From an uncultured bacterium (GTDB lineage: Bacteria > Krumholzibacteriota > Krumholzibacteriia > Krumholzibacteriales > Krumholzibacteriaceae): a stretch of DNA of 64,000 nt. Where the stretch lies: the NCBI GenBank assembly GCA_965371515.1, contig CBDUYR010000006.1:13977-77976 (forward strand), read 5' to 3'. Shown piece after piece: positions 44,101-47,100 of this stretch. The position numbers were made by a program. How positions within the stretch are numbered: position 1 is the first letter of the stretch; every line of letters begins with the position of its first letter.

Positions 44101-47100
44101 TTCCCGAGAGGGCCGAATAGAACTCGGCGAGGTCCCTCGCATCGGCCAGCCGGTCGATCTGCTCCGGACCGAGCAGCGTGCTGAGCCTCGCGCGCACCTT
44201 GGCATTGACTAGAGAATACTTGCTTAACGGCCTGAATATCATCGCGCTGTTTCCGTGAGGGAGAAACTTACTGGTCCGCGCCCTTTACGATATCGAGGAC
44301 CTTCGCCGCGGCTGCCTCGATCTGGACCGATTTGCTGGCGAGGAGTTCCCCGCTCCCGCCCTTGACCGCATCGACCTGCCGCTTCCGTTCGTCCTCGGCG
44401 TCTTTTCGGTATTTAGCGACGAGCTCCTGGGACTCTCTTATCGCGTCCTGGCGCCCCTTTTCGATGACGTCCCTCGACTGGGTCTCAGCCTCGCGCACGA
44501 TCTTCTGAGCCTCGGCGCGGGCGTTGTCGATCGACGCGCGGACCTCCGTCTCGGTCTCCATGATCTGCTTGACTATCTCTTTCAAGACCGCTCCAAGTCA
44601 TTGAGTTTCAGCAAGTCCTGATCAGTGAATAATCGGAGAGTATAAAGAAGCACTATGGCAGTGTCAACCGGCTAAAGGGGCCGTTGCCGGCCCTTTTCGC
44701 ACCAGTTCTTCGATTACCGAGTCATATTCGCCCGCCATGATACTCCAGTCGAAGCGGCGGACATGTTCGCGCAGGGCCGGAGCGGGGCGAATAGATCGAT
44801 CCTCCAGGATACCGCGGAGTCTGGCAGTCATGTCTTCCTGGTCGTTGTAGACGTAAACGGGATTAAGATCCTCGGGAACGTGTCCCGGGAAGGCCAGCCT
44901 GCCGGGAAGAAGGGGATAGCACCCGCAGCAGATCGCCTGGACAGTGCTCGCTCCGAAGAAGTCGTGGTTCGAGGTCACCGGCAGGATGTCGGCCCTCCAG
45001 AGCCAGCTGGCGTACTCGGCGAAGTCCGCAGCGAAGCCGAACTGAACGATTCTCTTTCCGAGCCGCTGTTTTGCTTCATCGAATACCGGCGGATATTTCG
45101 AGAACGATTCGCCGAGAACGGCGACCTCGAACTCAAGGCCTTCATCCGCGAGAACGAATAGTGCTTCGAAGAAATCTTCAGGGTTCTTGTCGTACTCCCA
45201 GCGGTGATTCCAGAGGATCAGGGGAAGCGCGTTCTCTCCACCTGCCATCCTGTGACTGTCCAGAGCCGTGAGGTCGACACCGAGCGAAAGGACCGAACTC
45301 TTCTCCCTTATCTTCTCTATCGATCCTTCCTCGTTATGATCGGGAAACGCATCGATGAATCCCGGCAGCTCGGATAGAAAGGAATCCATGTGATACTGCG
45401 AGTTGAACAGTACCGCGTCGGCGACAAGCGCCGATGTGTAGTTGATGAATCCGTAGTGGACGTCGCGCTCGAGGCCGGGATCGGGATCACCGTCAGACCA
45501 TGGATACGACAACTGGTTCTCGTGGAAGTAGATCGCGACAGGGGTCCCTGACGTCTTTTCCTTCGTAAGTGCGAGAAAGGTCGTCAGGTCGAGCATGTCG
45601 GTGGCGAGGATCAGATCGGGGGCGTGCCCCTCCTCGAGAAAGCGCCGTGCGAGAGTCACCGCCCCGCCGTGCATCCTCCACTTCCAGTGTCGGCCCTCAA
45701 GCCCGAGGATCTCGACCTCGTGCGCCGAGTACTTTGCGTACTCTCGCGCCCAGGCTTCATGAGAGCCGGTCAGAAAAGGTTCGACGATCAGGATCCTCAT
45801 TATCCTACTTCATCAGCTCCTTCAGGTCGGCCAGGACCTCGGACGAATGCTCGGGCGGCTTCACCTTCGGGTATACCTTCGCGACCTTCCCCTTCGGATC
45901 GATAAGGTACGAGATCCTTACGATCCCCATATACTCGCGGCCGGCCATCTTCTTTTTCTGCCAGGCGCCGTACTTCTGTATCATCCCGGTACTCTCGTCA
46001 GATAGCAGTGTGAACGGCAGCGAGTGTTTGTCGGCGAAGTTGCGGTGGCTCTTGACCGAGTCCTTGCTCACGCCGAGTACGACGGCGCCGAGTTTCCTGA
46101 ACGCGGACCAGTCGTCGCGTATCGCGCAGGCCTCCTTCGTGCACCCCGAGGTGTTATCCTTCGGGTAGAAGTAGACGAGCACCCACTTGTCCGCGTAATC
46201 GGAGAGCCTGTGTTTCTTTCCGTCCTGATCCGGCAAATTGAACGCCGGCGCCTTCTTGCCGACCTCGAGCATTGTCTTTCCTCCTTCTATACGTCTTTTC
46301 TCGTAAACACTTCGCTCCTGCCACCGGGTTCCTCCCCACCCATCGGAACGACGTGTATGTGAGCGTGCATCACAGTCTGGCCCGAAGACCTGCCGATGTT
46401 TATCCCTATCCTGTACCCGCCGGGAGAATATTTTTCGTCCAGGCTGCCCTTCGTTTTCTTTATCAGATCGAAACATGCCGCGACCTCTTCTTCGGTAAGA
46501 TCGAAGAAAGATGCGATGTGCCGCTTCGGGATGACCAGCGTATGCCCCGGCCGGACGGGGTACTTGTCGGGAATCGCACGAGCCAGTTCGTTCTCGAACA
46601 GGATCTTATCCGGCGAGCAGAACGGGCAGCCTCTTTCCATTACCGGATCACCACCGAGGCCTCGCCGTCGAACGGATTCATCCGAACGGCGAGAGAGAAC
46701 AGGTATGGATACCTGTTCTTGAGGTGTTTCATGTACTTGATCCACTCTACGAGCAGACTCGAACGGGCCCTGCGGATGTCGCCCTTCAGATGCTGGATAT
46801 CCTTCTCCGGAAGATCCTCGAATCCCGGTCTGTTCTCGAGCTCCTCGGCGAGGTGAAGCAGCGCCCACAGCAGATCGGTGAACGTCTCGTGCTCGAGAAG
46901 GTTCTGGTTCTGCAGCAGAGCCAGAAGAAACGATTTCTTCGACAATAGCAATTCTGAGAGCTCGACAAGGTCCTCTGGCCCGACCTGCGGTTCGAATCCC
47001 GACGTGGAGAGCTCAGCGACCAGCCCGTCGAACCTGCTGTCCGGCCATTTCGCCGACAGCATCAGCTTTTCATCCGGCATCGATGTATCCAGCCTGGAGA

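Follow-up and report, generated by a model that had tools for sequence, protein, structure and literature searches.

A QTMAN/GTDC1 family protein of an uncultured Krumholzibacteriota bacterium as a candidate glycosyltransferase of tRNA queuosine

Animal QTMAN (GTDC1) is an alpha-mannosyltransferase of queuosine in tRNA (Zhao et al. 2023 Cell, as cited in PMC11755703, PMC12518689 and bioRxiv 10.64898/2026.06.28.735034). Its product, mannosyl-queuosine (manQ), is described as an animal hypermodification, and our literature search gave no bacterial report of it; in mosquito, manQ was mapped to tRNA-His, according to PMC13737055. The known bacterial way to decorate queuosine-34 (Q34), that of tRNA-Asp, is GluQ-RS/YadB, an unrelated enzyme that adds glutamate. 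In the accessible part of PMC13602947, a compendium of RNA modifications in bacteria published in 2026, gluQ is the sole queuosine derivative named and there is no manQ, mannosyl or glycosyl entry, which counts against glycosylation of Q34 in bacteria. Bacterial DUF3524/PF12038 proteins, such as those of Desulfuromonas soudanensis and D. versatilis, carry the name "tRNA-queuosine alpha-mannosyltransferase" in UniRef and NCBI entries, in what look like automatic labels. The literature search gave no experimental paper on these labelled proteins, and Zhao et al. 2023 (or its supplement) and the de Crecy-Lagard 2024 review may discuss bacterial homologues. Homology itself adds little, since databases already record it.

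The gene studied here lies in a window of 64,000 nucleotides, the whole stretch of DNA that was analysed. It is an open reading frame (378 codons and a stop; 44664..45800, minus strand) encoding P0001, a GT-B glycosyltransferase of the QTMAN/GTDC1 (DUF3524) family; the gene is intact and in single copy, phmmer having found no paralogue in this genome (next match E 0.25). The Pfam domain QTMAN_N covers residues 2-175 (45276..45797, minus strand) and matches profile positions 1-168 of 168 with E 6.7e-61 and 205 bits, against a curated cut-off of 25. This presumed acceptor half, recognized by Pfam and by its conservation in bacteria and animals, carries the motifs G12-S13-H14, W39-K-W41-R42, Y91-F-H93-E94-N95-Q96, R112-D113 and Y116. 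The C-terminal donor half (about residues 194-365; 44706..45221, minus strand) contains W197-N-H-R200-W-E-Y-D-K205 and D280-x7-Q288. P0001 aligns over its full length with animal QTMAN at 31-37% identity (BLASTP E 2e-76 to 1e-63), for instance with the proteins of the tick Ornithodoros (36.6% over 374 columns, E 2e-76), the fish Oreochromis (33.3% over 357 columns) and Ptychodera (31.9% over 385 columns). Its AlphaFold2 model (pLDDT 95.8) has the two Rossmann domains of a GT-B enzyme. As the genome-wide survey's note had reported, a PDB sequence search gives generic GT4 C-halves only (3 matches, E 5e-6 to 5e-4), and neither sequence nor fold searches of the PDB found a structure of the QTMAN family. 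Judged by sequence, P0001 belongs to the QTMAN/GTDC1 family (PF12038), and the survey was right to describe a full-length homologue with QTMAN_N and a GT-B C-terminal half.

A Bcp/AhpC peroxiredoxin gene (45805..46272, minus strand; Pfam AhpC-TSA E 5.6e-42) lies upstream, 4 bp from the P0001 start codon, and the two are probably co-transcribed. Upstream of bcp is a HIT-family hydrolase gene (46287..46868, minus strand; Pfam HIT E 1.6e-22), the true start of which is probably further in. The HIT-Bcp-glycosyltransferase order is repeated at loci L024 and L031; the association with HIT is lineage-local synteny only, and the peroxiredoxin is not a conserved partner of the P0001 gene. A sigma-70-like promoter match (TTGACA-17-TATACT, 11 of 12; 44639..44667, minus strand) overlaps the P0001 stop codon and points into the V-type ATPase operon, which suggests that this operon may have its own promoter; the scan found 1 site against 1.2 expected in shuffles, at a looser 9-of-12 threshold.

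The best single explanation of the function of P0001, to which we give a probability of about 0.5, is that it glycosylates Q34 of tRNA. As animal QTMAN does, a soluble retaining GT-B enzyme would transfer a hexose onto one of the hydroxyls of the cyclopentenediol ring of queuosine. The donor would most likely be GDP-mannose and the sugar mannose, and the acceptor would be Q34 in at least one tRNA with a GUN anticodon. This tRNA may be one other than tRNA-Asp, and the sub-clade of P0001 may use a sugar other than mannose. This proposal rests on homology, on residue conservation and on one attempted refutation that it came through. Regarding conservation, 78 positions are conserved in at least 80% of 126 diverse bacterial cluster representatives, and at 59 of them (28 of the 40 that fall in the N-terminal half) at least 90% of 99 animal proteins carry the bacterial residue, which counts for Q34 as the acceptor. 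K205 of the HRWExDK motif aligns with animal K296, numbered via two 458-aa bird orthologues. Because the lysine of this motif is generic to GT4 enzymes, the match shows competence only. K296 is needed for manQ in human cells, according to bioRxiv 10.64898/2026.06.28.735034. Two features count against Q34. First, P0001 has D280/Q288 where 99 of 99 animal proteins have E-x7-E, and D-x7-Q is common to 107-108 of its 118 close bacterial relatives. E-x7-E is the donor motif in GT4 enzymes, and the D-x7-Q variant weakens the case for identical chemistry while it leaves P0001 in the family. Second, P0001 is acidic (pI 4.85); the net charge of its N-half is -13, that of animal proteins +1 to +8 and that of bacterial representatives -9 to +10.

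Most of the queuosine genes listed by the survey were located in this genome: tgt (C26:5347-6441, preQ1 type), QueC, QueD, QueH and a radical-SAM QueE candidate, together with tRNA-Asp(GUC) at C3:68806; the frame adjoining tgt is the QueA candidate, and tRNA-Tyr(GUA) is also present. Motif searches, a weak test, did not find QueF, which counts against Q34 as the acceptor. A ManC-like nucleotidyltransferase that scores below the full-length cut-off and the lack of a GluQ-RS over the cut-off in this genome count in its favour. We also considered a distribution complementary to that of GluQ-RS and ruled it out: GluQ-RS is near-absent from the phylum regardless (over the cut-off in 1 of 208 genomes), and 7 of 50 carriers have both it and the gene, a coexistence that counts against the Q34 proposal.

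Dependence on tgt was followed in separate sets of carriers, which have it in 141/146, 16/16, 89/92, 47/50 and 3/3 cases. These counts favour a role on Q34 and are nearly uninformative, because the background also almost always has tgt (201/208 and 175/201 genomes). None of 26 tgt-less Chloroflexota carries the gene (P about 0.10). Several tgt-less carriers are explained by contig breaks or have queA; those to which the contig-break explanation does not extend (G730, G700, G203, G110, G006 and G106, the last four being 59-86% complete) count against the proposal. QueH tracks the order, not the gene (50/208), and QueG-like matches occur in 5 of 5 carriers and in 5 of 5 non-carriers; neither pattern is informative on whether the gene depends on the final step of queuosine synthesis. 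The attempted refutation concerned one Chloroflexota order, in which QueA searches gave no match for 77 of the 92 carriers. All 13 carrier TGTs examined, which are kin to one another (11 from QueA-less carriers, 2 accompanied by a QueA-like match), have Gly233/Leu158, the signature of Chlamydia-type queuine-inserting TGTs (PMC12301720; PMC3660597). QueA-less carriers therefore keep a predicted route to complete queuosine; they are predicted to salvage queuine, and the Q34 proposal withstood this test.

The gene neighbourhood gives no such help. Six queuosine proteins of this genome and DUF366 (QueF, QueG and GluQ excluded) were searched for around 119 loci and 80 metagenome loci of the family. 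Only 2 matches were obtained in 199 loci (1.94 Mb of flank), tgt adjoining the gene in L093 and queD in L094, against 1.9-2.9 expected, and there was no tRNA-Asp in 112 loci scanned. This chance-level result counts against Q34 and bears out the survey's own caveat that no neighbourhood link to tgt or que genes exists. The survey's boldest claim, glycosylation of Q34 by this bacterium, keeps its support from family membership, conserved residues and the TGTs of QueA-less carriers, and loses strength by resting on homology with no queuosine-gene link.

The missing link and the acidic N-half would also fit bacterial enzymes acting on some unrelated, soluble acceptor (a sugar phosphate, a cyclitol or another small metabolite, like MshA, BshA and sucrose-phosphate synthase), the scaffold having been re-purposed for tRNA in animals. 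The best fold matches of P0001 are indeed small-molecule enzymes (sucrose-phosphate synthase, Z 31.7; BshA, Z 30.2), the animal clade sits on a long stem and has clade-wide substitutions such as K40H, M43A, N120Q and N198P, and in one lineage 12 loci have a phosphoglucose isomerase gene downstream. However, such fold matches are expected for any GT-B, solved GT-B enzymes with other acceptors are just 9-20% identical to P0001, the majority of acceptor-side residues are common to animals, and no phosphatase or deacetylase partner recurs across lineages. We regard an unrelated acceptor as unlikely, though the most serious of the alternatives.

A conserved base pocket combined with an acidic surface would be accounted for if the acceptor, glycosylated for storage or turnover, were not on tRNA: queuine or queuosine in free form, or a related heterocycle (7-deazaguanine, pterin). 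Many carriers are predicted queuine salvagers, pterin glucosyltransferases have the same fold, and FolB, dihydropteroate-synthase-like and PTPS genes were seen as neighbours, but these neighbours are single cases among 125 scanned. Moreover, most bacteria retain basic residues near the W39-R42 helix and near R112, and the characterised family member acts on tRNA, so a free base seems less likely still. That the family acts on queuosine-tRNA and the acidic D-x7-Q sub-clade has shifted to a different donor or has low activity would agree with D280/Q288, with the charge of -13 and with the absence of the gene from whole genera of the phylum (e.g. 0/16 in g16); we find it improbable, since D-x7-Q, present in about 107 of 118 relatives, is a fixed feature, the other motifs are intact and the model is confident, all of which fits a working enzyme. 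Least probable is that P0001 glycosylates envelope components or glycolipids (PimA-like or LPS/EPS), the function given by the generic database label: PimA is among the sequence and fold matches and there are a few envelope neighbours (RodA/PBP2, UppS twice, a GT4, GT2 in 9 loci, LytR/LysM), but P0001 has no transmembrane segment (best 19-residue hydropathy 1.25), its family lies outside polysaccharide clusters and is absent from plasmids, and it scores 14 bits with NCBIfam GT4 equivalogs against cut-offs of 400-480.

The family occurs in 146 of 208 genomes of the phylum, so that it is widespread as the survey had stated, at a higher figure than its 118 of 207. One copy is found in 144 of the 146 carriers, and 2 have two partial matches; no plasmid match was found in 72,556 records at E 1e-8. 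With neighbours that vary by lineage and lie outside polysaccharide operons, this is a housekeeping-like profile, which counts for Q34 as the acceptor. Cultured carriers include Geomonas diazotrophica Red69, Geothermobacter hydrogeniphilus HR-1, Desulfuromonas soudanensis and D. versatilis. Among Clostridia 3 of 250 carry the family (G306 unscored), and phages and viruses gave weak C-half GT4 matches only. Of 8000 scored candidates, 5 were longer than the family and were screened for fusions: 3 are tapeworm gene-model joins, 1 looks like a chimeric contig and 1 has a weak glycosyltransferase match, so that the family may be free of fusions among these candidates. Bacterial homologues make up 6726 of the 8000 and several are already auto-named QTMAN, so P0001 cannot be claimed as the first bacterial glycosyl-queuosine writer, as the survey had proposed. 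The family is absent from all 14 well-known control genomes, which could explain why a bacterial modification was missed.

In unrooted trees (FastTree and a quick IQ-TREE, no outgroup), animals form one clade beside bacterial sequences of families f5/f6 and P0243, and P0001 sits away from these, in a part rich in Desulfuromonadia and Bacteroidota. The animal-proximal bacterial homologues L162 and L174 have E-x7-E. A bacterial origin of the animal enzyme, also put forward by the survey, is compatible with these trees; they carry no root, and P0001 itself is outside the animal-proximal group. More tentatively than for P0001 itself, we propose that glycosyl-queuosine could be a bacterial tRNA modification written by the family in many phyla, including queuine-salvaging Chloroflexota, which like animals would pair a queuine-inserting TGT with a homologue of QTMAN. 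One bacterial sub-clade would have been the source of animal QTMAN, and members with D-x7-Q, P0001 among them, may add another hexose or serve another GUN tRNA. If bacterial enzymes do write mannosyl-queuosine, its age and its spread have been underestimated, and a bacterial QTMAN, compact at 360-380 aa, would be a tractable enzyme for the family's first structure.

Compared with known systems, P0001 shares the GT-B fold with PimA, MshA, BshA, GlgM and sucrose-phosphate synthase (Z up to 31.7, with an rmsd of about 3 A across some 330 residues), but these GT4-type retaining enzymes lack the QTMAN_N motifs at their low identity, and their acceptors are lipids or small metabolites. The labelled Desulfuromonas proteins are 61-63% identical to P0001, with D-x7-Q in the one aligned, and differ from it in no substantial way. 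Animal QTMAN has in common with it the full-length combination of QTMAN_N and GT-B C-half, the shared conserved positions and the lysine equivalent to K296; P0001 differs in being bacterial, in having WKWRM for WHWRA and D-x7-Q for E-x7-E, in a short acidic insertion near 102-111, in its much more acidic N-half and in that its activity is predicted. As a precedent only, Geobacter Dnmt2 is a bacterial homologue of a eukaryotic enzyme of the tRNA-Asp anticodon loop, which still modifies tRNA; it differs in being a methyltransferase and has switched to tRNA-Glu (PMC5699548), so that the choice of tRNA need not be kept when such an enzyme goes on acting on tRNA.

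The gene under study (window 44664-45800, minus strand) is an intact reading frame whose 378-residue product, P0001, matches Pfam QTMAN_N over residues 2-175 (E 6.7e-61) and aligns over nearly its full length with named animal proteins at 31-37% identity, confirming the genome-wide survey's note that P0001 is a genuine member of the family of animal tRNA-queuosine alpha-mannosyltransferases (QTMAN, GTDC1). Its closest named relative is a Ca. Krumholzibacteria protein (70% identity). NCBIfam returned two GT4 models only, both far under cut-off, and a PDB sequence search gave three matches, all GT4 C-halves. 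The AlphaFold2 model (pLDDT 95.8, input alignment of 118 sequences) is a two-domain GT-B fold, and fold searches led to GT4/GT5-type enzymes at 9-20% identity, with no QTMAN structure among the matches. The homology itself is not new: UniRef and NCBI already name several bacterial members "tRNA-queuosine alpha-mannosyltransferase", so the bacterial family is catalogued by homology. At abstract level, the literature yielded no study of a bacterial QTMAN, which does not prove absence from print; the first 300,000 of 309,985 characters of PMC13602947 contain no mannosyl-queuosine (manQ), mannosyl, glycosyl or QTMAN term. We consider the best explanation, with a probability of about one half, to be that P0001 would glycosylate queuosine (Q) at position 34 of tRNA.

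Upstream, the P0001 gene is preceded at a distance of 4 bp by a peroxiredoxin gene and then by a HIT gene; among the clustered loci this HIT-peroxiredoxin-glycosyltransferase order is also found in L024 and L031. Downstream lies a V/A-type (V-type) ATPase operon (window 35892-44585, minus strand) whose first gene is weakly G-subunit-like, the other subunits being presumptively named from their translations. Because an 11/12 sigma-70 promoter match (44667-44639) over the P0001 stop codon points into this operon, the ATPase genes probably form their own transcription unit. The stretch at 47371-52226 (minus strand) is ordinary in content, with genes for a DUF255/YyaL-like thioredoxin-domain protein, a metallo-beta-lactamase-fold protein and a bleomycin-hydrolase-like peptidase C1. 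Across the family, the 125 immediate neighbours chosen, one or two per locus, were mixed and lineage-specific. Recurring neighbours were confined to single lineages: HAD-IIA (family group f7), isocitrate dehydrogenase (f5), phosphoglucose isomerase, ComF, a cold-shock protein and a zinc-ribbon protein. The animal-proximal homologues of the f5 loci L159, L160, L162 and L173-L176 read E-F-Q-G for E-F-F-G, and at most of these loci they directly follow an isocitrate/isopropylmalate dehydrogenase gene; in one Chloroflexota lineage (L140-L147), the homologue start is abutted or overlapped by a gene for a zinc-ribbon/LIM-like protein of some 230 residues. Six Q proteins searched against 199 loci (1.94 Mb of flank) matched only at L093, where tgt directly adjoins the homologue, and L094, where queD does, against 1.9-2.9 matches expected, and no tRNA-Asp gene was found near the homologue in 112 loci. 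The survey's own caveat of no neighbourhood link to Q genes thus stands, and an unrelated soluble acceptor for P0001 is an alternative that we hold to be somewhat unlikely.

Of the phylum's 208 genomes, 146 carry a homologue (99 of the 125 good ones), with whole genera lacking it. Elsewhere, it occurs in none of 14 control genomes, in 16 of 201 Chloroflexota, in 92 of 120 genomes of one Chloroflexota order (that of G533) and in 3 of 250 Clostridia. The Chloroflexota counts of both the gene and tgt take in three unpublished genomes (G610, G487, G583), all tgt-positive and family-negative. A wider scan gave at least 600 matches, the best 80 of which fall in Desulfuromonadia, KSB1, Bacteroidota, Balneolota, Marinimicrobia, Verrucomicrobiota, Acidobacteriota, Chloroflexota and Clostridia, and the family forms 1041 clusters at 50% identity (E up to 1e-30). 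A plasmid search found no homologue, and viral or phage candidates were rejected as weak matches to the GT4 C-half. Tapeworm GTDC1 records joined to Snf7 or zinc-finger neighbours (P0288-P0290, P0292) are probably gene-model errors.

The survey's list of Q genes in the source genome (G000) was recovered in part: the genome has tgt, QueC, QueD, a QueE candidate, QueH and tRNA-Asp(GUC), while a motif search, which is a weak test, turned up neither QueF nor the listed FolE. A ManC-like gene falls under cut-off. The order queD-queC-DUF366-queE (G000:C9:27311-29770, L112) places DUF366 (E 3e-53) inside the preQ0 operon, and ARAGORN listed 37 tRNAs without tRNA-His(GUG) or tRNA-Asn(GUU), which are probably unassembled. 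Within the phylum, tgt occurs in 141 of 146 carriers of a homologue versus 60 of 62 non-carriers, so co-occurrence there is uninformative. In Chloroflexota, where carriers are larger genomes and kin, tgt occurs in 16/16 carriers and the homologue in 0/26 tgt-less genomes (P ~0.10). A check of 50 of the 79 wide-range carriers showed tgt in 47; of the three without it, two have queA. In four carriers (G113, G767, G794, G787), queA or tgt is truncated by the end of a contig; for G730, G700 and another four carriers with incomplete genomes, no such break accounts for the lack of tgt. GluQ-RS, which puts glutamate on Q, was absent over cut-off from G000, and occurs in 1 of 208 phylum genomes and in 7 of the 50 carriers, mostly Desulfuromonadia; the two modifications are therefore not mutually exclusive, and a carrier with both enzymes may use a different tRNA or another hydroxyl. 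In mosquito, manQ is located on tRNA-His (PMC13737055), and Geobacter Dnmt2 has switched tRNAs (PMC5699548). Action of P0001 on free queuine or a related base appears to us quite improbable.

In GT-B enzymes, the acceptor is held chiefly by the N-domain. Our alignment set P0001 against 126 full-length bacterial representatives (from 150, lengths outside 345-420 aa being left out), 118 close relatives and 99 animal proteins (from 120, leaving out 21 unnamed or partial). In the bacterial representatives, 78 positions reach a conservation of 80% or more; at 59 of them, among these 28 of the 40 in the N-half, at least 90% of animals have the identical residue. The 59 include E7, G12-S13-H14, W39, W41, Y91, H93-E94-N95-Q96, Y99-P100, Y116, R200-W201-E202, D204-K205, G255 and Y263. 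Since this half is common to both groups and is the main acceptor-binding part, its conservation argues for a predicted acceptor similar to that of the animals. Activity on the envelope is the reading we find hardest to credit. K205 aligns with K296 of 458-aa bird orthologues, and K296A is reported to abolish manQ in human cells (bioRxiv 10.64898/2026.06.28.735034). Against an animal-like function count D280 and Q288, common to 107-108 of the 118 close relatives where 99/99 animals have E and E, and an N-half net charge of -13, outside the range of both bacterial representatives and animals; with TGT and QueH of G000 at pI 6.3-6.5, this acidity is not genome-wide. That P0001 belongs to a retuned sub-clade is very unlikely in our estimation.

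The named animals fall together with unnamed animal-like sequences in a single clade on a long stem (support 99-100), adjoined by f5/f6 sequences of the phylum (SH-aLRT 96 with one sequence, 85 with eight) and by P0243, labelled Actinomycetota (94 for the three together). These neighbours share 39-45% identity with animals and reach the top scores on an animal profile, on which P0001 ranks 96 of 330; other bacterial sequences are thus the better candidates for assay and origin. The bacterial origin proposed for the animal enzyme agrees with these neighbours and with midpoint roots falling among bacteria, but in a tree without outgroup or bootstrap the direction is not established. Copies from the phylum branch off at three or more points of the tree, a pattern suggestive of transfer or hidden paralogy.

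QTMAN requires the cyclopentenediol of Q (PMC12518689). In the order of G533, 77 of the 92 carriers have no QueA match, 14 only weaker or partial ones and one a canonical QueA; among non-carriers, canonical QueA is found in 17 of 28. Were the TGT of the 77 of the preQ1 type, these carriers would be unable to form Q, and Q glycosylation would be contradicted. Twenty TGTs were retrieved for comparison. All 13 from carriers show D-E-L at 156-158, G-G-S-L-G and Gly at the Val233 position, as does one QueA-less non-carrier, whereas three canonical non-carriers, G000, L093 and two Clostridia show Cys158 and G-G-L-S-V-G-E. All 17 genomes of the order with a preQ1-type-scoring TGT and canonical QueA lack the homologue, a split that is possibly one lineage event; a weaker QueA-like gene (E ~1e-75) also occurs. 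One Chloroflexota TGT type (L269-L282) has an insert of about 20 residues after DSGGFQVFSL, His for Gln of GIVQG and Gly233/Leu158, and is predicted to serve queuine salvage in free-living bacteria. Many Chloroflexota, including G718, G737 and G783 (L286-L288), have a second, divergent TGT-family gene (E ~1e-90) with D-D-C at 156-158 and G-G-W-P-L-D in the pocket loop. The carrier TGTs have what sequence comparison marks as queuine-type residues, so Q34 glycosylation withstands this check, though with modest weight: TGTs of this kind are usual where tgt occurs alone, and the 13 are kin. The present analysis adds this outcome, the negative findings for neighbourhood and for GluQ-RS, and the better-placed bacterial sequences. 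Val233Gly widens the TGT pocket for queuine (PMC3660597), and Gly233 with Leu158 marks Chlamydia-type TGTs, the Chlamydia enzyme inserting queuine (PMC12301720). Compared with the pattern GG[LS][AS]G of PMC11570991, the carrier TGTs fit at only three of the four variable or final positions, with Leu in place of Ala/Ser.
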